Source: Candidatus Roizmanbacteria bacterium (GTDB lineage: Bacteria > Patescibacteriota > Microgenomatia > UBA1406). Taken from it: a stretch of 63,001 bases of DNA. Of this stretch, positions 36,740 through 58,979 are shown in pieces (the stretch's first letter is position 1; every line of letters begins with the position of its first letter). The stretch spans positions 1-63,001 of the forward strand of contig JANLHL010000045.1 of the NCBI GenBank assembly GCA_024654535.1, written 5' to 3'. A program made the translations under genes and the position numbers. The notes below the pieces were generated by a model. It saw only the letters and a list, made by a program, of their open reading frames with translations, did not search any database and was not told where the DNA came from.

Positions 36740-36874
36740 TGTAACGCATTTATTCTCACGAATTATACGTAAAATTATTGCTCAAAGGGCATACGCGTGT
36801 GGTAATATATATGTTGTTCTTTGAAAGGAAGAAAACAATTTCCCCGGTAGCTCAATGGTAGAGCGTCCGACTGT

Positions 36875-37434
36875 ATAGTATCAGTGGTGTAAAATATACT
36901 GTAGCAATGAAAGATAAACGTACTTATAGAGATCGTGCGGCATATATAATCAAAGCCGTTACTAAGCGTAGGAAGAAGCTTAAAAAAATGGCGGTAGATT
37001 ATCTCGGAGGTCAATGTATCTTTTGCGGTTATAATAAACTTGATGATGCACTCGAATTTCATCATATAGACGCGACAAAGAAAGATTTTGGCTTAGCGAA
37101 AAGAGGCCTCACGAGATCGTGGGAGAAAATAAAACAAGAGCTTAATAAATGTGTTCTTGTTTGTGCGAATTGCCACAGAGAAATACACACTGGAATAGTG
37201 CAGCTTTCAGCAGAAATGTTGATTGAAAAACAGGGTGAATTCAGGGAAACCTAAACCTGCCTTAGGTAGGTATGGCAATCCTGAGCCAAGCTTAGTGAAA
37301 GACACAACAGTAACTAGGAAGGTGCAGAGACTAGAGAGTGAGGAGTCTTACCAATAACCTCTCAATAAGCGCCCTGTCCCTCTAATAAAGGGAAAAAGAT
37401 AGTCCATTCTTTACAGAAATGTAAAGATAAAATG
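36875..37434 (+). ncRNA. group I self-splicing intron (560 nt) in the tRNA-Asn anticodon, between nucleotides 35 and 36
   Basis: The 5' exon ends in U, pairable with G36901 (P1: CUGU/GUAG plus AGUAU/AUACU).
Core elements: P GAATTCAGGGAAACC 37237-51, Q AATCCTGAGCC 37277-87, R GGTGCAGAGACTAG 37321-34, S AAGATAGTCC 37396-405.
Pairings: P3 CAGGGTG/CGCCCTG, P7 GACTA/TAGTC, P8 CCCT/AGGG, P9 TCTTTAC/GTAAAGA.
The intron ends in G37434. Confidence 0.8.
36907..37254 (+). CDS. intron-encoded HNH endonuclease
   Basis: CIFCGY...ALEFHHID...CVLVCANCHREIH is an HNH/Zn-finger signature. Starts 3 nt after P1 and its last ~24 nt overlap P3-P4. Confidence 0.85.
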   Translation: MKDKRTYRDRAAYIIKAVTKRRKKLKKMAVDYLGGQCIFCGYNKLDDALEFHHIDATKKDFGLAKRGLTRSWEKIKQELNKCVLVCANCHREIHTGIVQLSAEMLIEKQGEFRET

Positions 37435-39017
37435 TAATCGGCAGGTTCGAGGTTCGAATCCTCGCCGGGGAGCCAGTTGGCACTTAATATACCAAGTTTA
37501 GCCTCATTAAGAACTTGGAGTGCAGGAGTGTATTCGACCTCCACTATTTTCTTATTTTGTACCCATATCTTTTGGAAGAAAAAGTGTAGATAAGCACGCT
37601 TGTGGTCGATGTCCGAATCCTCATAAGTTTGAACGATATTTCGAGTAAGTTTAAGTACTTCGTTAATGATGGAAGTATCAATAGTGTTGGTCTTATCCTG
37701 TTCTAAAAGTTCTTTCTGAATAACTAAGGCTTCTGCATCTAGTTGAGTATTGAATTTTTGGAGTTGCTCAGCAGATAGTTTGTTATCAAAGTAATCTTTT
37801 TCAATCTTTATTCTTTTTTGATCTACTGCATCTCTTTTGTTAAATAATGCCTTTTTAGCGTGTTGAATACGATCAATACTTTCATCGTAAACACGAGTAA
37901 TGTTGGTTTCAACAGCCTTGATAAATTCATCTGTAAAGGCAAGTTTATCGACTTCTTGTCTTACTTGGTCCTCTAAGTCAGTAAGCAGTACATATCTTGA
38001 AGGGCAACCACCACGCTTACCTGTTTGAGAGCAGTGATACATCCCAATCTTGCCATTACCAGTTTTATACTTCTCATGATAATGCCATTCCGCAACATAA
38101 CGTCTTCCGCAGTCTTTACAAAAGACGATACCCCTAAGAAGAAAGTTGTGCTTTCTTTTGCGTAAGCCATAATCACCTTTTTCTGAGAGTATTTTTTGGA
38201 CTAATTCAAAAGTAGGTTTGTCGACTAGCGGCTCATGTTTTCCCTTACCCACTTGTCCTCCGTGTCTCATCTCTCCCCAATAGAATGAGTTCTTGAGCAT
38301 ATTTCCGACAATGGAATATTGAATCGGTTTACCTTTTCTTCCAGTAACCCCATTCTTGTGGAGATACTGGCGAATATCATAAATCGCATAATCACGAGTT
38401 GCATACAGTTTAAATGCTTGACGGACAAAAGGTGCTGTATCAGGATCAGGAATAACAATCTTTTTGTCGTAAGAACCCTCAGGATTTTTATTGACAACAT
38501 TTAGATAACCTAACGGAGCCCAAGACGGATAATATCCTGCCTTAAATTTTTCTGCCGCTGTTTGTTTGACTTTATAGCTAGTCATGCGAGGAAAGAAGGC
38601 GTTCATCACCGCCATCATTTCATTCATTGTTCTGCTTACTGGATCACCATTAATCACTCCCGAAAGTGGAACGATTTTAACCCCACATTTTTCTAGTTCG
38701 CTAATAATAAAACAATATTCAAAAGTATCACGAGATAGTCGGGATATGTCTTGAACAACGAGATATTTGATGTCCTTTTTGGAACACCGACTTAATAGGG
38801 CTTGGAAGCTTGGTCTGTTTAAAGTTGTACCTGAAATCCCATTATCAACGTAGCAATCTTCAGCTAAGTACCCACCCAATTCTTGAATCTTTTCTAGCCC
38901 CTTAATCTGTTGGGTTTCAATACTGAGATTATCTACCTGATCCAGGGTACTTACTCTTGCGTAAAGAATGCACTTTGGTTTATCTCCATGTTCTGTAATA
39001 TCTTGTTTTAATCTCAT
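37362..39017 (-). CDS. large serine recombinase (integrase) 1; the last ~35 codons are antisense of the tRNA-Asn 3' exon and intron
   Basis: Catalytic ILYARVSTLDQ, recombinase domain, Zn ribbon (CKDCGRRY...CSQTGKRGGCPSRY), and a coiled-coil. The ORF reads through the junction at 37475 (..ILSANWL|PGEDSNLEPAD..). Confidence 0.9.
   Translation of the reverse strand: MRLKQDITEHGDKPKCILYARVSTLDQVDNLSIETQQIKGLEKIQELGGYLAEDCYVDNGISGTTLNRPSFQALLSRCSKKDIKYLVVQDISRLSRDTFEYCFIISELEKCGVKIVPLSGVINGDPVSRTMNEMMAVMNAFFPRMTSYKVKQTAAEKFKAGYYPSWAPLGYLNVVNKNPEGSYDKKIVIPDPDTAPFVRQAFKLYATRDYAIYDIRQYLHKNGVTGRKGKPIQYSIVGNMLKNSFYWGEMRHGGQVGKGKHEPLVDKPTFELVQKILSEKGDYGLRKRKHNFLLRGIVFCKDCGRRYVAEWHYHEKYKTGNGKIGMYHCSQTGKRGGCPSRYVLLTDLEDQVRQEVDKLAFTDEFIKAVETNITRVYDESIDRIQHAKKALFNKRDAVDQKRIKIEKDYFDNKLSAEQLQKFNTQLDAEALVIQKELLEQDKTNTIDTSIINEVLKLTRNIVQTYEDSDIDHKRAYLHFFFQKIWVQNKKIVEVEYTPALQVLNEAKLGILSANWLPGEDSNLEPADYILSLHFCKEWTIFFPLLEGQGAY
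37467..37491. repeat. attL-type junction: 25-bp direct repeat copy 1 (GGGGAGCCAGTTGGCACTTAATATA)
   Basis: Identical 25-mer at 58980-59004. The first 9 nt are the tRNA-Asn 3' end and the rest is the antisense of the recombinase 3' coding end. Confidence 0.8.
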
Positions 39018-39066
39018 ATATTTACTAACTAATGAGTAAACTTCCTATATCTATATAATCAAGCGT

Positions 39067-39342
39067 TTACTCATGAAAAGCACTCCGGATCGTTCTTTTG
39101 CATCGTTCTTCCTGTGCTTGTTCCATTAATAACTGACACCATTGTTGAGCAAGCTTATCCACATCAAACGGGGGTTGCGTATTCTTCCCATTTGGCAACG
39201 GGGACTTTAGTCCTGTTGGGTTGGTAGGTTTGTCCTTTCTAACTGATATCTCTCCTTGTGATATTTCGGGACACGATTGAGCCAACTTACTGTTATCAAG
39301 TGTTTTCTCTGATTTGGTAAATTGGCTCTTTCGTTTACTCAT
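39067..39342 (-). CDS. small hypothetical protein
   Basis: 91-aa ORF tightly packed between the resolvase-like gene and the recombinase. Confidence 0.45.
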   Translation of the reverse strand: MSKRKSQFTKSEKTLDNSKLAQSCPEISQGEISVRKDKPTNPTGLKSPLPNGKNTQPPFDVDKLAQQWCQLLMEQAQEERCKRTIRSAFHE

Positions 39343-39344
39343 GG

Positions 39345-39686
39345 TTATTTGCCTTTAACACCGCCTTGAACAGTTTTTATTTCAACGCCTACTTCCTTGA
39401 TGTACTGTTGCATTGAAATTGATTTGACCTTTTCTCTTGATAGACGATCAATATTGGCGCAGACAATGCAGTCTATTTCAACGGTCCCAATAACTAAAAA
39501 CATTTGAGACAAACCACAGCCTGGTAGGTTTTCTGATGATTTTGAGTCAATATACAAAGCTGTTAACTCTAAAGATTCCTTTTCGCAGTATTGTTTTATG
39601 CTATTCTCTTGATCTTCAAGGGATTTTTTATTACCTGTTGCTGACCGTATATAACCTACGGCAACTTTTTTTGTGTTATTCTTCAT
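39345..39686 (-). CDS. stand-alone resolvase-type catalytic-domain protein (no DNA-binding domain)
   Basis: GGAGGTG RBS. VGYIRSATGNKKSLEDQ...IDRLSR aligns with the YxRVST...DRLSR pattern of serine recombinases, but reads R-S-A-T where R-V-S-T is expected. Confidence 0.6.
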   Translation of the reverse strand: MKNNTKKVAVGYIRSATGNKKSLEDQENSIKQYCEKESLELTALYIDSKSSENLPGCGLSQMFLVIGTVEIDCIVCANIDRLSREKVKSISMQQYIKEVGVEIKTVQGGVKGK

Positions 39687-41067
39687 GCAATTTCACCTCC
39701 TCTCTATTCGAGTTTGCTAATTGATTAGGGAAATAGTCTGTTTTCAAGAGGGCGGTATCCACAGAAGGACGACTACTATCAAAAAGTGAAGAGTATGAGG
39801 CATTTCTCAGGCTAAATAGGTCTTCGGGACTCTTAAAAGTCTTAAAAGAAAAAGGTAGAAAATGATGAAAAAACAATATATTACTGAGGATAATTGTGGA
39901 CAATATAATTCCTTGTGCTTTCCCCTTATTGTTACTGCTCTTACTACTATGTTTAGTGATACTCCTGATGTGATATTTGTTATTCACCTTAGTTGTATCT
40001 ATTCCATACAAGTACCCAGGATTCTGACTTCCTCGTCTTTCGATTAGGTTTCCAAGCTTCCACAATGTCCTTCTGAGGGTGCTTTGGGAGATGTTTAATC
40101 GCTCACAAATCAGATTGGACGGCTTTGCTTCGAAGTAAATCTCGTTAAATAGTTTTAGACAGTTAGTATCACCTATGATGTCAGTAGGGATTGTTGGAAG
40201 CACCTTCATTTCCTGCTTATTCAGATGGGATGATACTTTTTCGTTTTGACTAATCTCGTCTGATCCTAGTATTGGAGTGTAGTCAGCTTTTTCGTAGGAG
40301 CTTTCCATGGATAGCGTTTTAGTTTTGAGAGAAGAAATGACTGCTTTTAGGACTGCTACGCCTCGCTTTTTAGCTACCTCCAAAGACATGGGTTTGATGA
40401 GTTGGATTTCTAGCTTTGGAGGTATGTTTTGGTTAACTTTTTGATTTGCCTTTAAATATTCGAGGACATGTTTATATGTTTTGATATTGCAGTAACCGTC
40501 AATGTAAAGGTTTTTAATCAGGTGGGAATATTCCTCATCAGGGTCTAGGGCACTAGTTTTAATGTTCATCTTCCCGACAATAAATCTCTTGGCTAACTTA
40601 TCTAATGCCTTTGTGACTTCATCAAACTTATTAAATGGATGGCGACAGCAGATTTCAACATAACCATAGGTGATATGGTCAACAAGTATTTCAATGCCGT
40701 TACTTTTCAGGGAGTCGATAAAATCTTGGATTCTTTTTTCGGGATACATTCCATCAACATGGATGACGTTTTTGATGTAGTCGATGTAAGCCCAATGTTT
40801 ATATTCAAGCTTTCCGTTTGCTAGTCCGTATTTTGGAAGCAATATCTTTACCTCTAGGGGAGAATAGGTGTGGTTATGGAAGTTGGTATAGATTTTATTG
40901 GATTGACCAACACTAAACTTCGGGTCAGTGAACCCAAATAGTTTACTAACTAATAAGGAAAGTGGAGTGCTTGATGAAACGAAAAGGGAGGCTTTTACTC
41001 TGTGGATGTAAAAGTATTCCTTAGGGGTTGAATAATCTATTTGGATGTTAGAAAAATTAGTATTCAT
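39676..41067 (-). CDS. hypothetical protein with internal HTH, possible replication/initiator protein
   Basis: 463 aa with an HTH-like ERLNISQSTLRRTLWKLGNLI. The N-terminal half loosely resembles the Rep-like protein at 55533-56672 (ILLPKYGLANG vs LSLPKLLFGNN). Confidence 0.45.
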   Translation of the reverse strand: MNTNFSNIQIDYSTPKEYFYIHRVKASLFVSSSTPLSLLVSKLFGFTDPKFSVGQSNKIYTNFHNHTYSPLEVKILLPKYGLANGKLEYKHWAYIDYIKNVIHVDGMYPEKRIQDFIDSLKSNGIEILVDHITYGYVEICCRHPFNKFDEVTKALDKLAKRFIVGKMNIKTSALDPDEEYSHLIKNLYIDGYCNIKTYKHVLEYLKANQKVNQNIPPKLEIQLIKPMSLEVAKKRGVAVLKAVISSLKTKTLSMESSYEKADYTPILGSDEISQNEKVSSHLNKQEMKVLPTIPTDIIGDTNCLKLFNEIYFEAKPSNLICERLNISQSTLRRTLWKLGNLIERRGSQNPGYLYGIDTTKVNNKYHIRSITKHSSKSSNNKGKAQGIILSTIILSNILFFHHFLPFSFKTFKSPEDLFSLRNASYSSLFDSSRPSVDTALLKTDYFPNQLANSNREEVKLHEE

Positions 41068-41142
41068 AATCTGAATACCATTTTCCTAAAAAGGGCGAAG
41101 GGAATATAACCTATACACAAGCGTCTAAAAAGGAACTGCAGT

Positions 41143-41961
41143 TTACAAGCCGATAAAAGGTAGGTATGAAGCTAGAAGATTTTCGTATGCCTTGATACCC
41201 TTGATGATGTCGAGATATGTAGTCGTGTCGTTTTCATTAATGTGAGCCTTTTGCCATTCCTTATCAACTTCTTTTACTGATCCAAGCTTTATTTTCCCCC
41301 AGTACCATTCCCGATACTTTCGAACATTGGGAGTCGTGTCTGCGTGGGGTTTATAATAGGACATAAATTCGTTTGTTTTCATCATTTCTTTTGCTTTTCG
41401 AAGTTCCTCATCAACATCGTCATAGGTGGAAATAGGAGAAACAAAAATAGCTATCTGATTAAGTGCAGGCCATGCCCCCAATAGTGAAAAATCAACAGTC
41501 TTTGCCTCGGTAGGTTTGAATAGAGTGTCATCGACAGCACCACAGAGGATTGCTTGTTTGATTGCATCAATAAAATACGGTGGTCGTTTAAACTCGTAGC
41601 AGATTAGGTTGCACTCAGCATCAAATGTTTCAGGTAATGCGTTTTGCGAGCTAGTTATAAAATCGTAAAATTCAGGGAAATTCTCTTTAACCTCTTTTAT
41701 CCTTGAATATTTTGAGAGATCAATTATTCCAGTCTTATTTTCTATAAACCAACCCTTTTCGTAACTATCTAACTGCTTCTTAAACTCGCCCAAGGTGAAT
41801 AAATCGGTAACACCATATGCTTTTCGAAGGTTTGGAAGCATTTGAAGAAACTTGTCTTTATCAAAAAAGATAGCTAAATCCTGATAGAGGATGTCTTTCT
41901 CTGTACGAATATCAATCCGTAACCCATGAAGATAGGATTTATCAATTTTCTTAATTTTCAT
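41143..41961 (-). CDS. hypothetical protein (weak paralog of 57165-57851)
   Basis: 272-aa ORF and first gene of the minus-strand backbone operon. Local similarity LRKAYGV...FKKQL vs LYRDKYSV...FDEWL. Confidence 0.55.
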   Translation of the reverse strand: MKIKKIDKSYLHGLRIDIRTEKDILYQDLAIFFDKDKFLQMLPNLRKAYGVTDLFTLGEFKKQLDSYEKGWFIENKTGIIDLSKYSRIKEVKENFPEFYDFITSSQNALPETFDAECNLICYEFKRPPYFIDAIKQAILCGAVDDTLFKPTEAKTVDFSLLGAWPALNQIAIFVSPISTYDDVDEELRKAKEMMKTNEFMSYYKPHADTTPNVRKYREWYWGKIKLGSVKEVDKEWQKAHINENDTTTYLDIIKGIKAYENLLASYLPFIGL

Positions 41962-42099
41962 ATATATTTTCAGACTCTCAACTACATTGTACTAAAAATA
42001 TGACTTCTAAGGCGATTTATAGGTTTATTTATAGGGTAAAGCAAGATGAAAAGTGATAAAATATGATTGTTTAGTCGAGAATATAAAAGAAAATAAATT

Positions 42100-42993
42100 A
42101 TGGATAATACGAGAATTAACATTCTTCATATTTGGACAGAGGACAATCTTCGATTACAGGGTGTCCATTACGATTCGGGTTCAAAAAATACCTGTGTATT
42201 GTGTATCCATGGCATGTCAGGAAATTTTATAGAAAACTACTTCGCTAGTGTTTTGGGTGACACATTGTCAAATCAAAATATTGGTTTTGTTTATGGTCAT
42301 AATCGTGGATATAACCACATCAACGACATCGTTAAAAAAGAAGCGGATGGCAAATTCAAGACAGTAAGAATTGGTGCTATGTATGAAAGGTTTGAAGAAA
42401 GCATTAATGATATAGATGCGTGGTTGAACGAAGTAAAAAGATTAGGCTATAAAAAGGTTGTACTCTTGGGTCATAGTTTGGGATGCAATAAGACAATCTA
42501 TTTTTATAGTAAGAAACAACCAAAAGACATAGCAGGGGTAGTTTTGGCTTCTCCTCCTGATATGGTTGGTTTATTTGAAAAGACAGAATATCAACCAAAC
42601 CATAAAGAACTGTTATCGGAAGCAATTAGCAATATCAAAGACGGAAACCCAAGAAAGTTGGTCAGTGGAACGGTTTGGGATTGGTATCAATTGTCTTCAC
42701 AAACATATTTCGACTTATCAGAAACTAAAGGTTTGGTAGACAACCTTCCTGTTTTACGAAGTCCTGATAAATTTGAGGAATTATCGCAAATAAATGTACC
42801 GATACTTGGAATAATGGGAGAACTTGATGATATTGCGATTAAAACACTTGAAGAGGATATGGACTTAATAGCCTCTAAAGCAGAAAAATGTCCTTCTTTT
42901 ACAAAAGAGTTCATAAAGGGAGCCAATCACACATACGATCAACAAGAAGAAGCCTTTGCCAAAGTTGTAACCGATTGGGTAAAAAAATTATGA
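42100..42993 (+). CDS. alpha/beta hydrolase
   Basis: VLCIHGMSGN, nucleophile elbow LLGHSLGCNK, C-terminal GANHTY. Confidence 0.75.
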   Translation: MDNTRINILHIWTEDNLRLQGVHYDSGSKNTCVLCIHGMSGNFIENYFASVLGDTLSNQNIGFVYGHNRGYNHINDIVKKEADGKFKTVRIGAMYERFEESINDIDAWLNEVKRLGYKKVVLLGHSLGCNKTIYFYSKKQPKDIAGVVLASPPDMVGLFEKTEYQPNHKELLSEAISNIKDGNPRKLVSGTVWDWYQLSSQTYFDLSETKGLVDNLPVLRSPDKFEELSQINVPILGIMGELDDIAIKTLEEDMDLIASKAEKCPSFTKEFIKGANHTYDQQEEAFAKVVTDWVKKL

Positions 42994-43550
42994 AAGACTT
43001 TTTAGAATTGGCTCGGAAATTTGGATATGAAGAAGTTGAGAGGACGGGAATGCCGCTCAAACTTCATGTAGATTTGGCATGCCAGGTTGGGAAGAGATTA
43101 GCAGAGATTTTGGGAGCAAATGTAGAAATCGTTGAAATTGGAACACTTCTTATGGATTGTATGATCGGCCAGGCCATTAAACAAGGGAAACTTAACGAGC
43201 ATATTCGAATGTCTGCTGAGAAAGCAGATGAATTGCTTTCCCATTCAAATCTTTCAAGCAAAGATAAGGAAAATATAAGGCATTGTGTGCTTGAACATCA
43301 CGGTGCGGATAAATTTTATTCCTTAGAGTCTGAAATTTGTTGTAATGCTGATTGTTACCGATTTACTTCAGTTAAGGGGTTTTCCTACGCCATGAGATAT
43401 ATGAGAGAGATGCCTTTCGTTGATATGGTTAATCTTTTGGAAAATAAAGTGGCAGAAAAATGGGGATTAGTTAGCTTAGATATTTGTAAGAAAGAACTAT
43501 CACCACAACATTCAGTACTGAAATCATTTCTTAAAAAACTAAAGGCGTGA
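42990..43550 (+). CDS. HD-domain-like protein (HD dyad reads M-D)
   Basis: ATGA overlap with the upstream gene. LKLHVDLA...GTLLMDCMIG...CVLEHHGADKFY follows the HD-superfamily spacing, but the canonical H of the HD dyad is Met. Confidence 0.55.
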   Translation: MKDFLELARKFGYEEVERTGMPLKLHVDLACQVGKRLAEILGANVEIVEIGTLLMDCMIGQAIKQGKLNEHIRMSAEKADELLSHSNLSSKDKENIRHCVLEHHGADKFYSLESEICCNADCYRFTSVKGFSYAMRYMREMPFVDMVNLLENKVAEKWGLVSLDICKKELSPQHSVLKSFLKKLKA

Positions 43551-43585
43551 ACAAAATTATATAGTTACTGCCCAAATGATAATAA

Positions 43586-46500
43586 ATGAGCGAATTTTCA
43601 GAACAGACAATCATTGATGAAAAGGGTCTTAAAATACTTGCTTTAGCATTTGATGAGCTATTTATAGACATTCAGTCTTTTGGAGCAAAAGACAAGACAG
43701 CGGATGTAGATGGAAGAGTCAGGCTTAGGGATGGAAAAAGCAAAAACTTAAACAAAGTTCTTGAGTTTCAATTAAAAAGCACCAAGAAGGTAAAGGGTAA
43801 TAAACACAGGTTTGATCGTAAGGATATTGACTATCAACTTTCATGCAATATCCCCACTCTAATGTTTGTTGTAGATGTGACAAGTAAGAAAACGTATTGG
43901 TATTATTTTCCAAATAATGTTAATAAACTTGATATAGGGAAAAGTTACGAAACTAAAACGCTTGATCTCAAAGGGTGTGAAGTCGATGGTAACTCTAAAG
44001 AACTTAAAGAATTATGGGAAAAGATAGCAAGTGTTGAACCTTCAGAAATTTCTTCGAAAACTGCAACATCAGAACTTGAGTTAGACGTAAGAGCTGACAA
44101 AACAGAAACATCCTCACAAGTTCGAGCAGTACTAAGCTATGAGGCAACCTCCGAATATCAATCAGAACTAGATAATGCCCGAGATTTAATAAACAACAAC
44201 AAACCCCTCACTGCCTTAAGTATCCTCGAAGATTTAAAAAAGCGTGTATGGAATAAAACTTCTGATAATCTAGTTAAATTTCGAATATTGACCAACATTG
44301 GAGCATCCAAACTTGCCTTAGATCAGGAGACAGAAGCATGTAAGTTGTTTCTTGAGGCACTCCAATACAATCCCGATGATGAAAAGGCATTAGCAAATGT
44401 TTCTTTAGCTTATTTATTATCAGGAGATAGCGCTCAGGCAATTACTTATGCACTCAAAACATTAGATAAGAATCCTTCCAACCCCCAAGCGTTATCTGTT
44501 TTTTTGCAAGCAGCTGATAAAAAGAAACGTGATAGTTATCTAGATAAATTATCGAGCACTCTCAAAAACTCACCTGAGGTGTATTTTTCACTTGGATTCG
44601 TTGAACAGAAAAATGATAACTACGAGCAAGCAATTCCTTACCTACGTAAAGCGTTGGAGCTTGATGATGGCAAATCATTAGAGATACCAAGTACATTAGC
44701 GGGAGCATTGATAGATAAAAATGTCCCAGTCCTAAAGAAACAGGAGCTTGAAGGTTTAACAAAGAAAGATAATGCGGAGGTTGAGGAAGCGATAGGACTT
44801 CTAGATAAGGTTTGGGGTAAGGTTGAAAATACTGAATTAGCAAAAACAAAAGTTAGTTGGTTGGTAAATCGAAGTTTTGCGAAGAGAGTTTTAGGTAAGT
44901 ATGACGAAGCCTATGAAGATGCAAAAAAAGCATGCGAACTTGATCCTGACAATTTTAATGGGATACGAAATTTTGCAATCCTTTCTTTTGAGATGAATAA
45001 GTATGACGAAGCAATCAAGCTTCTTGAGCCATTTAAAAACTCTAAAGAATTTCCTCAAGCTACTTATTTGATGGGATTAGTAGTAAGAGAACGTAAAGAT
45101 TTTGATAAGGCTATTGCACTAATTCTGAGTCAATTGGAACAACCGAATATAACAGACGATACTAAAGAAGATGGATTAGCACTTCTTATTGAAACGTATC
45201 TGATGGCGGGAAAACCTGATGATGCAGAAAAATATATAAACGATAATCTGAAAAAGAATGAAAAGAACTTAATGTTATTAGTTTTCAAGTCAAAACTTTA
45301 TCAGGATAGAGGGCAACAATCAGAGGCGATAGAACAAATTAAAAAGGCATATAGCTACTTAACTGAGACATCTTCTTACCATGACAAGTTTATGGTCGGA
45401 AGCCAACTATATAAACTTCAACAGTTTAAAGAAACTCAAGCGATTTACGAGGAGATAGTCGATAAATCTGTTTACTCTCAATTGTTGTATCGGCTTTTGT
45501 ACACCTATTACGAAACCAATAGTTACGCAAAAGCACTGGCTCTCAGTCGGTCAATAATTCAAAAACAAGGACCCATTGACGATGTATTAAAGATACAAGC
45601 TGCCATTTTGGAAGAACAAGGTGATCTCGATGGAGTTATAGCAACTTATGATATGGCGATTGAAAATAATCCTAATGACATCTCATCAAAGGTTCAAAAA
45701 GGGTTTGTGTTACTTAGGCAAAATAAATTTAAAGAAGTAGATAAGTATTTAGATGAGACAATTTTCGATTTAGAAACACTTTCGGAAACAATGAGATTCC
45801 GATTGGGATACCTCTATGCTCTTCGTGGAAAAATAGATGAATTCCTTACAACCATTTACGAAACTAGACGGAAATTTTATGACGATGAAAAAGCGCATGT
45901 GGAATACATTCAGCTGTTCTTCATGAGAACAAAAGACACTGAGTCCATTCTTGCCCCAAAAGAAGTTAAGGAAGGGACTGGGGTTGTTTATAAACTTCCC
46001 AATGGTCAGTTGGAACGCTTTGTTATTGATGATAGAGAAGATGCGTCCAAAGCACTTAAAGAAATTAGACCAAGCGAGGAGTTGGCAAAGAAATTAATGG
46101 GTAAAAAGGTTGGAGACAAAGTTGAAATTAAGCCAAGAGTGATTGTAGAAATAACGGAAATCAAGAGTAAATATGTCCATGCTTTACACGAAAGTATGGC
46201 GTTACACCAATCATTGTTTAGCGATACGCCTGGTCTGCAAAGTATTCAATTGGGTGAACCTAAAAAGAAGGGTGAATTACCTGAAGGATTTGACGTTATC
46301 GAGAAACAAATTACCGATCAATATGACCATGCACAAAAGGTGGAAGCTCTTTATAAGAATAAGAAGATTACCATCGGAGCTTTTGCGAATTTAATTGGTA
46401 GAAACATAATTGAAGTTTGGGGTGGGATGGTAGCCGAGGAAAGGTTGGGTATAAATTACGCAAGAGGTGATCTGCAAGAAAGGATCACTGCTGTTGCTGA

Positions 46501-47434
46501 ACTCAAAGATAATATTCAACTTGTTATTGATCCAATAGCTCTACTCACTATTCACTCGTTGGACATTAAAGACCTAATGATAAAGGCTTACGGAAAATTA
46601 GGAATAGCTCAATCGACTTTAGATTTAATCAATCAACAAATATCACAATTGGAACCTATTAAAGAAAAGGGCTATCTAACTTTAGGCAAACAAGGAGAGC
46701 AATTTACCAAGTGGGAAGTCAAACCTGAGACTATAAAAAAGAACATCAAATATTTAAAAGATTTGAGCCAATGGATTAAAGACAACTGTGAAATACTTCC
46801 AATTACAGAAATGGAAGACATTACTAAAGAACAGAAAGAAGATTTAGAAAAACTCTTTGGTATCCCTTCCATAGATACAGTTTTAATTGCGAGAACTAAA
46901 GAGAAGCTTTTATTTTCTGATGATCAACCGTTAAGAGAGGTTAGTAAAAACGAGTATCACGTTAATGGGATTTGGACTCAAGCTCTTTTAATGAATGCAT
47001 TGGGTAAGGGCTTTATAACTCAGGAGCAATATGACGACTATGTTCTTAAACTTGTGGGTTTAAATTATTACTACACAAGCGTAAGTGGCAAAAACTTGTT
47101 TTACGCTCTAGGGAAAGCTAACTGGAAGCTCGAAGAACCATTTAAGAGTGCTTTAAGAATGTTAGAGCCATCTTTTACTGATACCGATTCATCAATAAAT
47201 GTAGCTGTCGACTTTTTATATGATGTGTTTACGCAAAAAGTGATACTTGGAGATGTAAATCCAATTTTATTTAGTTTGCTTGATAGTTTAACCAAAGATA
47301 GGCTTGTAGGTGGAGTTTTAGGAAAGTTGATACAGGATTTGAAAAAAAGATTTTATTTAATACCTCTAGATTTAAAACTTATTCTTGATGCAGTAGAAAT
47401 TTGGAACAAAGCAAAGATAGTCAAAACCCAGTAA
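43586..47434 (+). CDS. 1282-aa multidomain protein: DUF4365 (restriction-endonuclease-fold) + long TPR array + GreA/GreB-C-terminal-like domain + PIN-like domain
   Basis: aa 1-150: ADVDGRVRL...EFQLKST (DUF4365 pattern).
aa ~190-790: repeated A..Y..AL...P TPR units.
aa ~800-850: RPSEELAKKLMGKKVGDKVEIK (GreA C-terminal-type motif).
aa ~970-1130: IQLVIDPIALLT and LLFSDDQPL (PIN-type acidic motifs). Confidence 0.8.
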   Translation: MSEFSEQTIIDEKGLKILALAFDELFIDIQSFGAKDKTADVDGRVRLRDGKSKNLNKVLEFQLKSTKKVKGNKHRFDRKDIDYQLSCNIPTLMFVVDVTSKKTYWYYFPNNVNKLDIGKSYETKTLDLKGCEVDGNSKELKELWEKIASVEPSEISSKTATSELELDVRADKTETSSQVRAVLSYEATSEYQSELDNARDLINNNKPLTALSILEDLKKRVWNKTSDNLVKFRILTNIGASKLALDQETEACKLFLEALQYNPDDEKALANVSLAYLLSGDSAQAITYALKTLDKNPSNPQALSVFLQAADKKKRDSYLDKLSSTLKNSPEVYFSLGFVEQKNDNYEQAIPYLRKALELDDGKSLEIPSTLAGALIDKNVPVLKKQELEGLTKKDNAEVEEAIGLLDKVWGKVENTELAKTKVSWLVNRSFAKRVLGKYDEAYEDAKKACELDPDNFNGIRNFAILSFEMNKYDEAIKLLEPFKNSKEFPQATYLMGLVVRERKDFDKAIALILSQLEQPNITDDTKEDGLALLIETYLMAGKPDDAEKYINDNLKKNEKNLMLLVFKSKLYQDRGQQSEAIEQIKKAYSYLTETSSYHDKFMVGSQLYKLQQFKETQAIYEEIVDKSVYSQLLYRLLYTYYETNSYAKALALSRSIIQKQGPIDDVLKIQAAILEEQGDLDGVIATYDMAIENNPNDISSKVQKGFVLLRQNKFKEVDKYLDETIFDLETLSETMRFRLGYLYALRGKIDEFLTTIYETRRKFYDDEKAHVEYIQLFFMRTKDTESILAPKEVKEGTGVVYKLPNGQLERFVIDDREDASKALKEIRPSEELAKKLMGKKVGDKVEIKPRVIVEITEIKSKYVHALHESMALHQSLFSDTPGLQSIQLGEPKKKGELPEGFDVIEKQITDQYDHAQKVEALYKNKKITIGAFANLIGRNIIEVWGGMVAEERLGINYARGDLQERITAVAELKDNIQLVIDPIALLTIHSLDIKDLMIKAYGKLGIAQSTLDLINQQISQLEPIKEKGYLTLGKQGEQFTKWEVKPETIKKNIKYLKDLSQWIKDNCEILPITEMEDITKEQKEDLEKLFGIPSIDTVLIARTKEKLLFSDDQPLREVSKNEYHVNGIWTQALLMNALGKGFITQEQYDDYVLKLVGLNYYYTSVSGKNLFYALGKANWKLEEPFKSALRMLEPSFTDTDSSINVAVDFLYDVFTQKVILGDVNPILFSLLDSLTKDRLVGGVLGKLIQDLKKRFYLIPLDLKLILDAVEIWNKAKIVKTQ

Positions 47435-47442
47435 ACAGCAAA

Positions 47443-47466
47443 GAAGGCTAGTATTACCTAGCCTTC
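47443..47466. terminator. bidirectional hairpin between convergent genes
   Basis: GAAGGCTAG-tattac-CTAGCCTTC is a perfect 9-bp stem, 9 nt after the stop of the 1282-aa gene. There is no clear U-tract. Confidence 0.45.
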
Positions 47467-47486
47467 CTTGGGTGTCTTCCCACTAT

Positions 47487-47714
47487 TTATTTAGAGGAAT
47501 TAATAGAAGTGGACTTCTTTATTTTAACCACCTCTTTCACTTCTTGCACTGGTGGTACTTCTACTTTCTGTTTTGCTTCCGCCAGTCGTGCTTTACGTTT
47601 TAACATATATCTGCGGTGAGCTTCCTTCGCTTTCTCGCCTGATTGGTATTTTTTTCTTGCGATCTGACCCTTCTCAGATTTTGCATAACGGATTTGTGCT
47701 TCACTCCATGCCAT
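47487..47714 (-). CDS. small Lys/Arg-rich hypothetical protein
   Basis: GGAGGTG RBS 6 nt upstream of the ATG at 47714 (MAWSEAQIRYAKSEKGQIARKKY...). Confidence 0.55.
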   Translation of the reverse strand: MAWSEAQIRYAKSEKGQIARKKYQSGEKAKEAHRRYMLKRKARLAEAKQKVEVPPVQEVKEVVKIKKSTSINSSK

Positions 47715-47971
47715 AAATATCACCTCCTTTTTTGTTTATTAAACTTCTAATCATCTATATCTATTATCAAAACAAACCTCACTAAAGGCACTCCCGTAGT
47801 AACTGGAAACCACTATATATAAGGGTGGCAGAATCTTTGATTTATACCTGCAGATCAGGTAAAATGAATATGTTGAGTTAACAAATCTAGGTTTGTTCCT
47901 CACTGAAAATAATAGGAAAATTTTAAGAAAATCGTGTACCTACTATTTATTAGTGGAAAAGGAGCAAACTT

Positions 47972-48922
47972 ATGAAAAACATTACAATACTGCAACCAAA
48001 AGCAGAGTTTAGCGAACAGTTACAAGACAGACTTTCAAGACTTGGTGACATCACTTATATAGACAGCCTCCGAGAATATTCCCTAGAAGAACTTATCCCT
48101 CTCGTTAAACACGCAGACATTCTAGCCTTTGATCCTGACTCTGTTGGTGGAGTGGAAAAAGCACCTGCACGACTACAAACTTTACTTGAAGCCATGCCGA
48201 CAGTTAAAGGACTGGCTCTTAATACCTCAGGCTTTGAATATGTTAATAAAGAGTATCTCCGAGAAAGAGATATTGTTACCTCAAATGCTCCTTACTATTA
48301 TGTTGAAGCTATCGCTCAGCATACAGTTGCTCTCTTAATGGGTTGCGCTAAACGAATATTCCTAGCAGACCGAAGAACAAAAAAGAAAAAGTATCGACTT
48401 GATTTAGGGAGAGAACCAAGTCATTTATCAGTTGGCATTATTGGACTGGGTCATGTTGGAGAGAGGGTAGCAAAACTCTGTCAGGGATTAGGAATGAGTG
48501 TATCCGCCTACAACCGAACACCTACTCGAATGGAATTTGTTCACAGACGAAAATTAGATGAAATCCTGCATAGCTCTGATGTTATTCTTTTGCATCTAGC
48601 ACTAAATGAAGAAACAAAAGGGTTTTTATCCCTAGAAGAAATTCATAGGATTAAAGATGGGGCAATCGTTATCAATACAGCTCACAGATTACTAGTAAAT
48701 GAGCAGGAAATGGCGAATGCACTAAAGTTTGGGAGAATCGACCAATATTGTTTTGAAGCAGACTCCGTTAATGGATCACCGCTAAAGGATATTGAAACAG
48801 CAATCGCCTTTAAACCTTTCGGTTGGTATACAAAGGAAGCATTAAACAGAAATAAAGAGATATGGGTAGAAAATATCGCAGGGTTATGTCGAGGAAACCC
48901 TACTAACAGGATTGCCTTGTAG
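47972..48922 (+). CDS. D-isomer-specific 2-hydroxyacid dehydrogenase family protein
   Basis: GGAG RBS, the NAD-binding motif VGIIGLGHVGERVA, and a catalytic-domain layout. Confidence 0.85.
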   Translation: MKNITILQPKAEFSEQLQDRLSRLGDITYIDSLREYSLEELIPLVKHADILAFDPDSVGGVEKAPARLQTLLEAMPTVKGLALNTSGFEYVNKEYLRERDIVTSNAPYYYVEAIAQHTVALLMGCAKRIFLADRRTKKKKYRLDLGREPSHLSVGIIGLGHVGERVAKLCQGLGMSVSAYNRTPTRMEFVHRRKLDEILHSSDVILLHLALNEETKGFLSLEEIHRIKDGAIVINTAHRLLVNEQEMANALKFGRIDQYCFEADSVNGSPLKDIETAIAFKPFGWYTKEALNRNKEIWVENIAGLCRGNPTNRIAL

Positions 48923-49054
48923 GTATATAAATCAATTGTGGGACATTCCTATAACAGGTGAAACAATCGCTAGTTTAAAACAGGTATCTTTCATACATTT
49001 AGCTTCAAACGCCTCGTAAATCGCATTTAAACGCTTTGTACGAGGTAATATTCT

Positions 49055-50461
49055 CTACCGAAGTAATAAACCATCTTCAATTGAGCTGATTAGTTTTAAC
49101 ATGATGTCATTTAAGCTTTTTTCCTCTAACGTGGTCGGCAGGGAGTCAATAATATTTAATATTGATACTCTTCTAAATTCCTTTACCATATTTTTAATTT
49201 GGAGTTCAGGATGTAGCGCAAAAATCAGTCCTTCTATTGTTTCAAATGCTTTGAAATATCGGACAATGCCTACCGGTACTTGAAAACCGTTTCTTTGCAA
49301 CAAGTTTAAAACCTCCACCAATATTGGTCCTGATTGTTTTTGTTGTGCAAGGTATGTTTTTGAGTCAAATGTGCTCACTAGTTTTTCGGAGATCAAATCA
49401 TATCCTTTTCTTACTTCTGCTAAGTTATTTGGAGTATTTTCACCACAAAGAGAAACTAAGGAATTAAATGCATCGTTAGAATTCCCAGTTAACATTGATC
49501 TTAAATATCTAAGAATCAAAACCCTCTCTTTTTTCGATAGTGTTCCAACAATGCCAAAATCAATGAAAATCAATTCTCCCTTTTCGTTATAAATTACATT
49601 TGCAGGGTGAGGATCGGCATGGAAAAAACCATGAATATGTGACATTTCAAGGGTATTTCTTATCAGTTTATTTACAATCAACTTGCCATCAAAATTTAAC
49701 GATTTTAGTTTGTTTAATATGACTGTATTCTTGTCTCTCTTTGCTTGAATTATTTGTGAAAGACTATATCCGTCAACATACTCCATTACTAACACCTTGT
49801 TTGTGGAATATTTCTGATAAACTCGAGGACCACGAATACCATCTTTAACTATATTTTCTAACTCGTTAAACCTCTCAATATTTGCAGCCTCAAGTTGATA
49901 GTCCAATTCGTCTTTAGTCCATATTTCAAACTCTTCGACAATTTTTATCATCTTATTTGCAGGTTTTAAAATTACATCTGCTATTAATGCAATTTTCCTA
50001 AGTAGGGATAAATCAGAATCTACATTTTTCTTTACATTTGGTCTCTGCACTTTTACTGCGACAACACTTCCGTCTCTCAAATATGCTTTGTGAACTTGTG
50101 CAAAAGATGCTGAGGCTATTGGAGTAAAGTCAAATTTGGAAAACAATTCTGACGTGGTGGAATTTAACTCTCGATTTATTATTTCCTCAACGTAGTGTTT
50201 GGGGAAGGGAGGAACCTTATCAAGTAATTTATATAATTCGTTACAATAAGTGTCGGATAGAAAGTCAGGTCGAAGAGCCAACATCTGTCCTAACTTAACA
50301 AATACAGAACCTAGCTTTTCAAGTGATAGCCGTAAAAATACCGCCTGTTTATCTTCAGGATCGTTCTTTATTTTTGACCAAATAAATATATAGAACGAAA
50401 ATGAAAGAAAAACCGACACAATCTCACCAAGTCTAAGAAATTGATTAATTTTACTTCTCAT
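49055..50461 (-). CDS. ABC1/UbiB-family atypical protein kinase
   Basis: LGSVFVKLGQMLALRPD, ASASFAQVHKA, VAVKVQRP, HADPHPANV, IDFGIVG. Confidence 0.85.
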   Translation of the reverse strand: MRSKINQFLRLGEIVSVFLSFSFYIFIWSKIKNDPEDKQAVFLRLSLEKLGSVFVKLGQMLALRPDFLSDTYCNELYKLLDKVPPFPKHYVEEIINRELNSTTSELFSKFDFTPIASASFAQVHKAYLRDGSVVAVKVQRPNVKKNVDSDLSLLRKIALIADVILKPANKMIKIVEEFEIWTKDELDYQLEAANIERFNELENIVKDGIRGPRVYQKYSTNKVLVMEYVDGYSLSQIIQAKRDKNTVILNKLKSLNFDGKLIVNKLIRNTLEMSHIHGFFHADPHPANVIYNEKGELIFIDFGIVGTLSKKERVLILRYLRSMLTGNSNDAFNSLVSLCGENTPNNLAEVRKGYDLISEKLVSTFDSKTYLAQQKQSGPILVEVLNLLQRNGFQVPVGIVRYFKAFETIEGLIFALHPELQIKNMVKEFRRVSILNIIDSLPTTLEEKSLNDIMLKLISSIEDGLLLR

Positions 50462-50483
50462 ATATTAATTATACTGATATAGG

Positions 50484-50858
50484 TTATTCTTCTACCACTT
50501 TCTCTTTATCCTTACAATTTGCACAAACTATGATTTTTTGAGTTGATTTCTCAAAGAACCCGATAAATGCCTGGGATCCTTTCTTTAAGGGTTTACCGCA
50601 AAGAGAACAATGAACATCTTTGTTGAGAGTGATAGATTGGTAGCCAACAATTGAGTCTTCACCTGAATCAATATAACTTCTTAGTTTCTTATCAATCGCA
50701 TCCCATACTTCTCCGTGGATTTCTAAATAATCTTCTACTAGATTTCTTAACAGATTAGAAGTGGAAATACGATGTTTCTTTGCCTTACTTGAAATTTTGT
50801 CGTAAAGCTCTTTTGATACTCTCGTATGAACAACCTTCTCGTTTTTATTATCATCCAT
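50484..50858 (-). CDS. ribbon-helix-helix (CopG-like) + C-terminal zinc-ribbon protein
   Basis: GGAGGTG RBS before the ATG at 50858. HTRVSKELYDKISSKAKKHRISTSNLLRNLVEDYL is RHH-like, with C-terminal CSLCGKPL...CANC. Confidence 0.6.
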   Translation of the reverse strand: MDDNKNEKVVHTRVSKELYDKISSKAKKHRISTSNLLRNLVEDYLEIHGEVWDAIDKKLRSYIDSGEDSIVGYQSITLNKDVHCSLCGKPLKKGSQAFIGFFEKSTQKIIVCANCKDKEKVVEE

Positions 50859-50881
50859 ATTATTTTTCACCTCCTTTAATC

Positions 50882-50897
50882 ACAATGTATACATTGT
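50882..50897. promoter_or_regulatory. perfect 16-bp palindrome, candidate operator of the RHH gene
   Basis: ACAATGTATACATTGT lies 24 nt upstream of the RHH gene start and is followed by a third CACAAT half-site. Confidence 0.45.
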
Positions 50898-51029
50898 ATC
50901 ACAATATAGACGTATGTCAATTCTAACCAGTAAACTGAGTGGTTCTTATGACGTACCTTCTTTCCTTTAAAATTGTTATACTGACTATGTACATGATGAT
51001 GGTTACTCAAGTTTAAGAGGAGAAAATAT

Positions 51030-51317
51030 ATGAAAATTGCATTAGTAGGGTTAGTTCTTGGTTTAACATTGTTTGCTGTTGTTCCTCTCGCTCATGCCGA
51101 AGCCGATGAATGTCCTGCCGCTCCTTCGATTGCCGCACATTACTTACACGAACAGGGAATAAAGTCAGGGAGTGAGACTTTTAAAAATGTTGTATCCGTT
51201 ATCTCCAAACAAATGGGACCACAAACAGACTTTAATAATGTTAAAGCTTGCGATACAGAACAATATAAGAGGCTTGTGATATTTAATGTTGTTAATAGTT
51301 TGAATTATAGTAAATAG
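51030..51317 (+). CDS. small secreted hypothetical protein
   Basis: AGGAG RBS, a signal peptide (MKIALVGLVLGLTLFAVVPLAHA), and two Cys. Confidence 0.55.
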   Translation: MKIALVGLVLGLTLFAVVPLAHAEADECPAAPSIAAHYLHEQGIKSGSETFKNVVSVISKQMGPQTDFNNVKACDTEQYKRLVIFNVVNSLNYSK

Positions 51318-51326
51318 GGCTTAGTA

Positions 51327-54295: not shown

Positions 54296-54299
54296 ATTA

Positions 54300-54689
54300 T
54301 TAGTATTCCTCGTGCTTCATTCCGATCGTTGGAATAAAACGCACTAAATTACTTATAAGATAAAATGGTGCAATAATAAGCGAGGTGGCGCTCCACCAAC
54401 CTAAAAATAAAGTGGTAAGTGTCTTTTTTTTGAACTCTCGGTTTATACATTTTTTGCAAAATCTGCCTTTTACTGATGAGTATCGCCGTGCAAATATCAT
54501 TCCTATATTTTGATTAAACTCAACATTTTTAGTTGGCGCAAGACTACCACAAAGTTGGCACCCCCTTGTTTGTTTGGCAAAGTAGGTTTCGACTGATCCT
54601 TGTACTTGTTTTTCTTCAAGAGGCTCGCCACATTTATGGCAAAACTTTGCGTCTGCGTTAGTGTTTGAATTACAATTTTGGCAAAGCAT
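54300..54689 (-). CDS. double zinc-ribbon membrane protein
   Basis: MLCQNCNSNTNADAKFCHKCG plus CQLCGS...FCKKC, and a C-terminal TM helix. Confidence 0.62.
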   Translation of the reverse strand: MLCQNCNSNTNADAKFCHKCGEPLEEKQVQGSVETYFAKQTRGCQLCGSLAPTKNVEFNQNIGMIFARRYSSVKGRFCKKCINREFKKKTLTTLFLGWWSATSLIIAPFYLISNLVRFIPTIGMKHEEY

Positions 54690-54690
54690 T

Positions 54691-55353: not shown

Positions 55354-55354
55354 A

Positions 55355-55549
55355 TTATTTAGAGTCCTTATTTTTAAGAAAGATATCTAGATTCTCCCTT
55401 TTTATTCTATATTGTTTTCCCGCCTTTACGGCTATAAGCTTTTCCGCTCGTACCCATCGATAAACAGTTAAATAGGCAACCTTTAAAGTTTTAGAGACTT
55501 CCTCTATGGAGTAATATTGGCTGTGTTTCATATTAGTTATATTTAACAT
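55355..55549 (-). CDS. excisionase-family (MerR-type) HTH DNA-binding protein
   Basis: YYSIEEVSKTLKVAYLTVYRWVRAEKLIAVKAGKQYRIKRENLDIFL is the typical Xis/AlpA-like HTH. Confidence 0.72.
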   Translation of the reverse strand: MLNITNMKHSQYYSIEEVSKTLKVAYLTVYRWVRAEKLIAVKAGKQYRIKRENLDIFLKNKDSK

Positions 55550-57085: not shown

Positions 57086-57164
57086 TGATTAAAGATTAGG
57101 ACTTAGGGTTAAGAAAGTATGTGTCTGGAGCTATTGAGTAACAGTAGTTACCAACAATTCACTG

Positions 57165-57851: not shown

Positions 57852-57892
57852 TTGTATTATAATTGATATTGTTACTCTAAGGTAGTAAATAT

Positions 57893-58432: not shown

Positions 58433-58434
58433 GC

Positions 58435-58884: not shown

Positions 58885-58979
58885 AACGCTGGTGTAATAT
58901 TAAACGCCTCATAGAGCGTTTTGATAGATACTAAACTAACATCTAACTTAACTTTCCTTTTCCTAAATGCGTTTACCAA

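Follow-up and report, generated by a model that had tools for sequence, protein, structure and literature searches.

A large serine recombinase that probably carries its attachment site inside its own 3′ coding end, in a tandem array at a tRNA-Asn gene

Introduction

Can a site-specific recombinase harbor its attachment site within its own reading frame, such that the enzyme exchanges its C-terminus upon integration? This question is raised by a 63,001-nt stretch of DNA from Candidatus Roizmanbacteria (GCA_024654535.1, contig JANLHL010000045.1, positions 1–63,001, forward strand; hereafter, the window), in which the gene for a large serine recombinase, recombinase 1, runs on the minus strand into the 3′ end of an intron-containing tRNA-Asn(GUU) gene. 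An earlier reading of this DNA (the original prediction) had placed the attachment (att) site inside the 3′ end of the recombinase gene and made the C-terminal tail of the protein dependent on the integration state. Independent loci, the termini of homologous proteins, and selection acting on the tail agree with this proposal, and we consider it highly likely that the att core sits inside the 3′ coding end of the recombinase, that its tail depends on the state of integration, and that the window contains a tandem array of such elements.

Large serine integrases are prized tools in genome engineering, as the reaction between a phage-side site (attP) and a bacterial site (attB) is simple and one-way. 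The direction of this reaction is thought to be set by a coiled-coil motif together with a separate directionality factor. If true, a large natural family of enzymes whose C-terminus is rewritten by their own reaction would represent a different principle of directionality control.

Below, L followed by a number denotes fetched relative loci, P followed by a number listed homologous proteins, and X2 and X6 a metagenome contig and a metagenome run, respectively.

Results

Recombinase 1 continues into the antisense of a tRNA gene

Recombinase 1 is a 551-aa open reading frame (ORF) on the minus strand (39017..37362), whose Pfam matches (Resolvase, Recombinase, and Zn_ribbon_recom) identify it as a large serine recombinase. 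Its catalytic domain (PF00239, E 7e-26) covers residues 17–161, with Ser23 located in the motif YARVSTLDQ; Pfam reported domains of the serine-recombinase type only, with neither a tyrosine-recombinase fold nor a catalytic Tyr. The body of the protein (residues 1–514; 37476..39017, minus strand), defined by these domains and by about 110 listed homologues in its family, is followed by W515-L516 (..ILSANWL), and the TGG CTC codons of this Trp-Leu (WL) pair are the antisense of the 3′-terminal GAGCCA of the tRNA (37470–37475). From there, just as the original prediction had described, the frame proceeds as PGEDSNLEPADYILSLHFCKEWTIFFPLLEGQGAY to a stop at 37362. These 35 residues (PGEDSNLEP..GQGAY; 37362..37469 with the stop, minus strand), here called the integrated-state tail, are antisense to the tRNA 3′ exon (37435–37475) and then to the 3′ part of the intron.

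The tRNA gene itself becomes visible upon splicing: ARAGORN called no tRNA in the raw window, and returned a clean 75-nt tRNA-Asn(gtt) when 36841–36874 was joined to 37435–37475. The 5′ exon (36841..36874) and the 3′ exon (37435..37475; ending in GAGCCA and forming the B half-site of the left junction, attL), both on the plus strand, enclose a 560-nt group I intron in the anticodon loop (36875..37434, plus strand). The intron matches Rfam family RF00028 over 37145–37426 at 89.5 bits and carries an ORF with a Pfam HNH domain (36907–37254), and intron-less relatives in metagenome contigs omit precisely 36875–37434.

Joining the recombinase 1 body (39017..37476) to either of two arms farther right in the window keeps the frame open. 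The arm ending at 51461 gives ..WLENRNTNITTQLACIIKAFSDFRLVAQIREEIEKVKPCMAISA with a stop at 51327, and the arm ending at 58988 gives ..WLPLVNAFRKRKVKLDVSLVSIKTLYEAFNITPAF with a stop at 58881; both joins reproduce those of the original prediction letter for letter. Its junction coordinate was right as to location and one base off, the GAGCCA shared by tRNA and core ending at 37475 rather than 37476. After integration, the catalytic, Recombinase, and zinc-ribbon domains (residues 1–516) all stay on a single ORF and the exchange is limited to the last 42 residues, so that the gene is not split into two inactive pseudogenes. With these domains intact, the integrated form is probably still foldable, not destroyed.

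Assignment of the two tails to two recombinases

The first arm encodes 42 aa plus a stop (51327..51455, coding part 51330–51455, minus strand) and reads ENRNTNITT..FSDFRLVAQIREEIEKV..; we call it the type-1 tail on the basis of its in-frame join, its relatives, and the selection acting on it. Its present position in the window makes it an in-frame extension of the body of a second recombinase (51462..52907, minus strand). This recombinase 2 (52907..51327, 526 aa) is 22% identical to recombinase 1, aligns with it end to end including WL, and shares with it the PF07508 (Recombinase) and PF13408 (zinc ribbon) domains.

To which body the type-1 tail belongs can be read from relatives. Four loci (L007, L009, L010, and L015) are single elements with recombinase bodies 53–55% identical to recombinase 1, and in each of them a type-1 tail (LEDRNVNITSQFVRIFKVFEDFRFISQLREEMDKVRP..) is found on the recombinase strand, 6–10 kb upstream and in frame via the CTC codon that both share. 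The sequence before the stranded tail is, in three of the four, an unrelated flank resembling the terminator hairpin of the tRNA. In addition, metagenome contig X2 (15.6 kb) contains an element ~91% identical to the one between the tRNA and the type-1 tail of the window, adjoining a different tRNA-Asn sequence. The match starts at the tRNA end (37443), stops precisely at 51461, and gives way to unrelated DNA, arguing that the 13,986 bp at 37476..51461 (element E1) are a discrete mobile unit with the type-1 tail as its right end. The far-end tails of the four single relatives, the X2 boundary, and purifying selection on the tail (see below) thus support the 51330–51455 arm as the native tail of recombinase 1.

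The second arm, or type-2 tail (PLVNAFRKRKVKLDVSLVSIKTLYEAFNITPAF plus a stop; 58881..58982, coding part 58884–58982, minus strand), was delimited from its sequence and relatives. At L032, the gene order is tRNA-Asn, a recombinase 2-like gene (54% identical), HTH_17, a 378-aa gene, SpoVG, a type-2 tail, and a recombinase 1-like body, and L030 repeats the right-hand part of this order. As these neighbors match those of the second element of the window, E2 (a 379-aa gene and SpoVG), the type-2 arm would be the far end of E2; the evidence therefore supports that the 58884–58982 arm belongs to recombinase 2's element, not to that of recombinase 1. The original prediction had treated both arms as candidates for one and the same element. 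While both are indeed in frame, the tandem array leaves the 58884–58982 arm to E2.

The type-1 tail is a conserved coding sequence

We compared 12 copies of the type-1 tail (ten loci plus the window) and based the codon-split analysis on 11, leaving out the near-duplicate copy at core D (see below). Across codons 11–36, that is beyond the att site, differences amount to 433/259/754 at codon positions 1/2/3, with a mean synonymous divergence (pS) of 0.72 and a mean non-synonymous divergence (pN) of 0.25. Close pairs have pS values of 0.36–0.62 at a pN of 0.03 (L015–L017: pS 0.62, pN 0.03). Over the entire 36-codon tail, the native frame yields a pS of 0.64 and a pN/pS of 0.39, compared to 0.26–0.49 and 0.49–1.05, respectively, in the five other frames. 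By these measures, the type-1 tail is a real coding sequence, evidently under purifying selection. Codons 3–10 in the P arm (ENRNTNIT) show flat differences (122/110/97), which fits a stretch that doubles as a predicted protein-binding DNA half-site.

The native type-1 tail is predicted to form helices that carry the motif F-E/S-D-F-R-L-V-x-Q-I-R-E-E-I-E-K-V, and it closes with a small hydrophobic C-terminus. Even the tails of distant family members (~33% identical) share the core motif, for example ..VLEDFEYMASLREQ..SHSVVAA. Native tails end in a K/R-P-x-hydrophobic-A-hydrophobic type of sequence (K/R-P-x-L-A-x-x; e.g. KPSLALAA or RPSLIPAIA), and their last four residues are A/V/I/L/S/T in 82%, as opposed to 29% in integrated forms and a background of 38%. 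Strict ssrA-like LAA ends are rare among native tails. From this composition bias, a degron role of the tail may be hypothesized.

Three un-split relatives (L002, L005, and L014) provide a natural variation on this theme. In these, the WL core has been lost from the gene, the type-1 tail is kept as a fixed C-terminus, and a 24-nt stretch that copies the half-site of the gene end (GGGTATATTAAGTGCC..GCTC) lies by itself after the stop codon (L002 11660–11700; L005 12372–12396; L014 11685–11715). In L002 and L005, this stretch directly adjoins the end of the tRNA-Asn gene; in L014, a type-3-tail-like sequence comes after it. No far-end P arm of these elements was found within 10 kb. That a lineage which escaped the split still kept the tail argues that the tail matters.

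Recombinase termini across the family

The layout is not a peculiarity of the window. We surveyed 240 listed homologues of the two recombinases, which come from candidate-phyla-radiation bacteria (Daviesbacteria, Woesebacteria, Microgenomates, and Pacebacteria). In 90 of them, WL is followed by P-R/G-x-D-S-N.., which corresponds to the tRNA T-loop GGTTCGAATCC read in antisense, and another 75 stop within four residues after WL. With ~165 of the 240 ending in tRNA antisense or near WL, the arrangement appears to be a trait of this recombinase family in candidate-phyla-radiation bacteria. Integrated-form tails in relatives are often just 2–4 aa long, with stops falling anywhere from 2 to ~60 residues after WL.

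Homologues ending before WL, which the original prediction had named as evidence that would speak against it, were not seen among the listed full-length proteins (P0164, at 478 aa probably a fragment, stops short); in the L002/L005/L014 minority, the att site lies behind the stop and the tail is permanent. At the DNA level, a tRNA-Asn(gtt) overlaps the recombinase 3′ end in nine loci (L001, L004, L007, L008, L010, L012, L013, L019, and L032) and an intron-bearing tRNA-Asn does so in L002, L009, and L015. The tRNA-Asn introns at these last three unrelated loci beside the same recombinase family occupy L002 11731–12012, L009 11610–11842, and L015 11603–11813.

Searching 1.8 billion representative proteins with the tail only (44 residues) returned 95 clusters (P0241–P0335), 94 of which are ORFs of at most 120 aa—mostly stranded tails that are read into from unrelated preceding sequence. 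In public gene calls, many orphan ORFs of 40–120 aa are such stranded recombinase tails. A groundwater metagenome run (X6) carried the type-1 tail on well over 100 contigs (summed depth ~190; matched to window positions 51349–51461 and 59350–59459) with many different sequences beyond the core, pointing to a very abundant and diverse element family in that sample. Viral contigs scanned with the recombinase alignment contained no relative, and hence no free phage-like form, and the contigs L017, L004, and L008 showed no terminal overlap when checked for circularity.

The attachment site and its crossover

Where exactly would strand exchange take place? The predicted attP spans ~49 bp as an imperfect inverted repeat (GGTTATATTAA .. 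TTAATATAACC), centered on the Leu codon of the conserved WL, which precedes the stop codon of the recombinase gene itself by ~42 codons. Its P′ half-site is formed by the codons for ..LGILSANW, such that the last ~8 codons of the recombinase 1 body (LGILSAN; arm motif GGTATATTAAGTGCC) serve two purposes, and its P half-site by the first eight tail codons (ENRNTNIT); attB comprises the last ~25 nt of tRNA-Asn. In intact genes, perfect inverted repeats of 11 nt (L017) and 10 nt (L025), separated by a 27-nt spacer, are centered on the last base of the Leu codon, which implies an attP of ~49 bp resembling the LI/A118 model. Scoring of inverted repeats was also tried as a means to pair tails with bodies and was dropped as evidence, since the scores fell below the 99th percentile of random.

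Comparison of the left and right junctions of L007, L009, and L015 confined the crossover to GAGC on the tRNA strand, within which GA (tRNA positions 71–72) would be the best-centered crossover dinucleotide. The codon preceding the tail Leu conforms to this: it was NNG in 69 of the 69 readable cases among the 95 tail hits (encoding W, M, V, L, Q, K, E, or R), implying that the G of this codon moves with the tail, its first two bases being part of the flank. With a crossover inside GAGC, the element would, via its Trp codon, contribute the terminal bases of the tRNA, with the CCA end among them.

The P arm and the tRNA arm each have an outer GGTT, which starts 24 nt away from GAGC in the former and 19 nt away in the latter. 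The B′ arms, that is the non-tRNA flanks, lack a common motif across six junctions (among them L007 3852, L009 1152, L015 2564, window position 51462 onwards, and the X2 flank). Site recognition may rest mainly on the tRNA half-site, which would be unusual for serine integrases and would also account for repeated insertion at an already occupied site, and thus for arrays.

A head-to-tail array at one attB

The core indeed recurs along the window, each time with different partners. Core A (GAGCCA, 37470..37475) has the tRNA to its left and the recombinase 1 body to its right. Core B (GAGCCA, 51456..51461), the junction of E1 and E2, lies between the type-1 tail and the recombinase 2 body, and core C (GAGCCA, 58983–58988) between the type-2 tail and a 16-nt copy of the recombinase 1 gene end (the P′ arm) that extends to 59004. 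Core D (GAGCCA, 59453–59458) joins a 98% identical copy of the type-1 tail on the left to a 55–61-nt relic of a recombinase 1-like gene end on the right, and the variant core E (GAGCAA, 62894–62899) a degenerate type-2 tail to other DNA. A repeat comparison within the window showed how the flanks of the cores swap partners from site to site. A perfect 25-nt repeat (37467–37491 = 58980–59004) comprises the three bases before core C, the core, and the P′ arm copy, and a 107-nt repeat of the tail (51355–51461 = 59352–59458; 98% identical) breaks exactly at the core. This recurrence, with repeats ending at the core, argues that the GAGCCA layout did not arise by chance; together with the partner changes and a recombinase 2 that aligns at WL, it is the signature of a head-to-tail array at a single attB. 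Read in this way, the window shows integrative elements lined up behind the intron-containing tRNA-Asn(GUU) gene of a Microgenomates-type bacterium of the candidate phyla radiation, each intact one being, by its gene content, moved by a large serine recombinase.

Besides recombinase 1, E1—delimited by the X2 match and Pfam—encodes a small resolvase-domain ORF, an alpha/beta hydrolase, a TPR-GreAB-C-PIN protein, a 2-hydroxyacid dehydrogenase, an ABC1 kinase, and a ribbon-helix-helix (RHH) protein. E2 (51462..58988; 7,527 bp), assigned by synteny with L032 and L030 and by Pfam, contains recombinase 2, zinc-ribbon proteins, a trypsin-like protease, the 379-aa protein, SpoVG, and a Panacea antitoxin pair. 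The 470-bp E3 (58989..59458) consists of the P′ arm, a MazG-like ORF (59029–59349), the type-1 tail copy (59352–59452; 98%), and core D; from this composition, it could be either a deletion relic or a non-autonomous mini-element movable in trans by recombinase 1. E4 (59459..62899), recognized from repeats and domains, is a decayed element that starts with the recombinase 1-like 3′-end relic (59459–59513; 85–87% identical), continues with TrpR-like, EamA, racemase, and YbaK-like cargo, and ends with the degenerate type-2 tail (62768–62893) and the GAGCAA core.

Small ORFs restricted to a resolvase catalytic domain (113–146 aa) lie just upstream of recombinase 1-type genes in at least four loci (window 39345–39686 and 39067–39342; L030 9242–9682; L006 9010–9426; L003 10001–10351). 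By position and domain, the one at 39345–39686 is a candidate accessory or directionality factor. Recombinase 2-type elements (L019–L024, L030, and L032) share a backbone of SpoVG, a 378–387-aa protein, and a 57–61-aa HTH_17 excisionase-like gene, and carry exchangeable type I or type II restriction-modification cargo; their HTH_17 genes are likewise candidate accessory genes.

Alternative explanations

Several observations weigh against an integration-dependent tail, or against parts of the array as laid out above. Any functional effect of the swap is wholly inferred. Neither a circular junction nor an empty site of this exact genome was present in any read or contig; the public runs hold relatives, in the form of assembled contigs, the best-matching sequencing run contains 24% of the sampled window words, and none was listed for E2. 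Inverted-repeat scores of the window's arm pairs range from 4 to 6, whereas random scores average 2.5, with 7 marking their 99th percentile. The other such observations bear on particular alternatives and are taken up with them.

The best-surviving alternative, which we nevertheless regard as unlikely, is that the tail is incidental: the enzyme would be complete at about WL, the att site would abut the gene end, and the ORF would merely run to a chance stop. The scattered stops of integrated forms, 2 to ~60 residues past WL, would be expected under this scenario, and type-2 tails are weakly constrained (pS 0.73 and pN 0.13 in one close pair, with the others near saturation). An AlphaFold model of the full-length relative P0022 can be taken in the same sense. 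Its body is folded without the tail, at a predicted local distance difference test (pLDDT) score of 80–95 up to about residue 510, and includes a long helical hairpin (367–448) inside the zinc-ribbon region that represents a coiled-coil insertion. The tail, with two predicted helices, scores below 50, and the model provides neither a structural role nor a docking site for it; going by this model, the tail looks like an appended module rather than part of the fold. However, an incidental tail would hardly be conserved in sequence and length across bodies that are only 22–33% identical, as is the case for type 1. Nor would it exhibit the third-position bias described above, a pN/pS of ~0.35 that drops to 0.05 in close pairs, and a native-frame synonymous divergence unmatched by the other frames. 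Finally, lineages whose att site has moved out of the gene retained the tail.

Quite unlikely, too, is a nested or composite structure, namely a single 21.5-kb element bounded by the 25-nt repeats, in which recombinase 1 would pair with the 58884–58982 arm and recombinase 2, with the type-1 tail as its native one, would be cargo. The perfect direct repeat 37467–91 = 58980–59004 fits such a unit—a further point against separate elements—and the join of recombinase 1 to the arm at 58988 is in frame as well. Moreover, the pairing of bodies and tails is not absolute: some recombinase 1 homologues bear type-2 tails (P0015, P0017, P0048, P0052, and P0058) and, conversely, type-1 tails occur on recombinase 2-like bodies or fragments in other contigs, although the latter is expected if arrays shuffle tails. 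What argues against the composite is that the E1-like element in another host stops exactly at 51461, that four single elements with recombinase 1-type bodies bear type-1 tails at their far ends, and that none of the 119 other listed recombinase 2 homologues carries a type-1 tail. Besides, the type-2 tail of L032/L030 belongs to the element with the recombinase 2-like gene, SpoVG, and the 378-aa gene, and comes to lie next to a recombinase 1-like body only through a reversed array order. Co-excision of E1 and E2 as a unit is possible as a secondary event.

An assembly artefact, with metagenome contigs mis-joined at repeated att sequences, is very improbable, for although the window stems from a metagenome-type assembly and has 25–107-nt repeats at every junction, the same tandem layout is found in independent assemblies from different studies (L006, L013, L011, L030, and L032), the reading frame is kept at each junction, and the relics E3 and E4 are diverged copies (75–98% identical), not identical repeats.

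Discussion

Returning to a tandem array of elements with integration-dependent tails, the following sequence of events may be proposed. In the free circle, the gene would encode a 558-aa enzyme with a conserved, selected 42-residue tail. Integration would place the recombinase body beside the tRNA and strand the tail-coding piece at the element's other end, 7–14 kb away, leaving an integrated copy that consists of the body plus tRNA-antisense residues (35 aa for recombinase 1). Since TGG CTC is antisense to GAGCCA, the element would rebuild the tRNA end in the same step. In a tandem array, an inner recombinase would take the tail of its neighbor, as recombinase 2, which carries the tail of E1, appears to have done. 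On sequence grounds, there are thus two state-dependent products of one gene.

Whether the swap has a regulatory role, modulating activity, directionality, or stability, we judge to be about an even bet. Any single specific mechanism of tail action is, at best, doubtful. This also applies to the rather speculative idea of a built-in state sensor, in which the full-length enzyme of the free circle would be integration-proficient and perhaps short-lived, and the enzyme of the integrated copy would differ in directionality or stability. For example, a tail-less or tRNA-tailed enzyme might be excision-competent without a separate directionality factor, or might block further integration. In that case, the recombinase itself would record the state of its DNA, and neighbors in an array, in swapping tails, would also swap their regulation.

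Serine integrases have here colonized the very 3′ terminus of a tRNA gene, which was long regarded as the domain of tyrosine integrases. The elements would be a main vehicle of defense and cargo genes in candidate-phyla-radiation bacteria, whose mobile elements are poorly known. For genome annotation, variable recombinase C-termini and orphan ORFs of 40–120 aa would be the two halves of one split gene.

Comparison with known systems

An attP within the integrase gene is known for a few tyrosine integrases; here, it is seen in a family of large serine integrases. The original prediction knew of no such arrangement in the latter group, and a full-text literature search likewise found no description of a serine integrase with attP in its own ORF, although absence from that search is not proof. 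Canonical members (Listeria A118/LI, phiC31, Bxb1, and SPbeta SprA) resemble the enzymes studied here in having Resolvase, Recombinase, and zinc-ribbon domains with a coiled-coil insertion, and a pseudo-palindromic attP of ~50 bp; for none of them did we find a report of an attP inside the integrase ORF. In LI integrase, half-sites measure 25 bp and the outer zinc-ribbon-domain (ZD) motif lies 5 bp nearer to the center in attB than in attP (PMC3783163). The two distances of GGTT from GAGC noted above, 24 and 19 nt, may correspond to this 5-bp shift; the six B′ arms are without a common motif. In contrast to our family, the canonical enzymes mostly target protein-coding genes, and tandem arrays at an occupied site are not typical of them. 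tRNA targets of serine recombinases are rare, with actinomycete integrative and conjugative elements (AICEs) of Mycobacterium at tRNA-Leu and phiRSM1 at tRNA-Ser as examples (PMC3218068), and the Islander study of 2015 stated that none were known (PMC4383910).

A large serine recombinase gene completed only in the excised state has a counterpart in TnpX. There, the joint restores an upstream promoter, not 3′ coding sequence, and the protein is the same in both states. The circular form of Tn4451/Tn4453 reportedly creates the tnpX promoter at its joint (Lyras and Rood 2000).

That the state of the DNA sets a protein's C-terminus is shared with the integration-dependent immunity of mycobacteriophage BPs and its relatives, and the small hydrophobic ends of native tails recall the ssrA-like tag of that system. 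In BPs, attP resides in the 3′ part of the repressor gene, integration removes 33 C-terminal residues with an ssrA-like degradation tag, how stable the protein is thus depends on the state of the DNA, and the integrase also has a C-terminal proteolysis signal (PMC4557955). However, BPs relies on a tyrosine integrase that cuts the repressor gene, whereas the recombinase here would cut its own.

The analogue named by the original prediction, the SSV-type tyrosine integrases, holds insofar as their recombination site is inside the integrase ORF and their targets are tRNA genes. The 'suicidal' integrases of archaeal viruses and plasmids such as SSV1 and pT26-2 can also form hybrid genes from re-assorted halves (PMC7253208), comparable to the exchange of tails in the present array. 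Yet these are tyrosine recombinases whose gene is split into two inactive pseudogenes, while here a single ORF retains every catalytic and DNA-binding domain and the exchange concerns only the last ~42 residues. For this reason, SSV is a weaker match than the IntP/IntX system of myxophage Mx8.

Mx8, whose attB sites are in tRNA-Asp genes, is the closest precedent, with an attP in the 3′ part of int and a new 3′ end upon integration, as for recombinase 1. Because its attP lies within the int coding sequence, integration produces a recombinant gene with a new 3′ end and an enzyme that is altered rather than destroyed (PMC6070905; PMC4383910). Two differences set the systems apart: Mx8 employs a tyrosine recombinase with arm-type sites and a long identity core, as opposed to a large serine recombinase with a simple attP of ~49 bp, and Mx8 is one phage, whereas the layout described here is common to a large family of elements in candidate-phyla-radiation bacteria.

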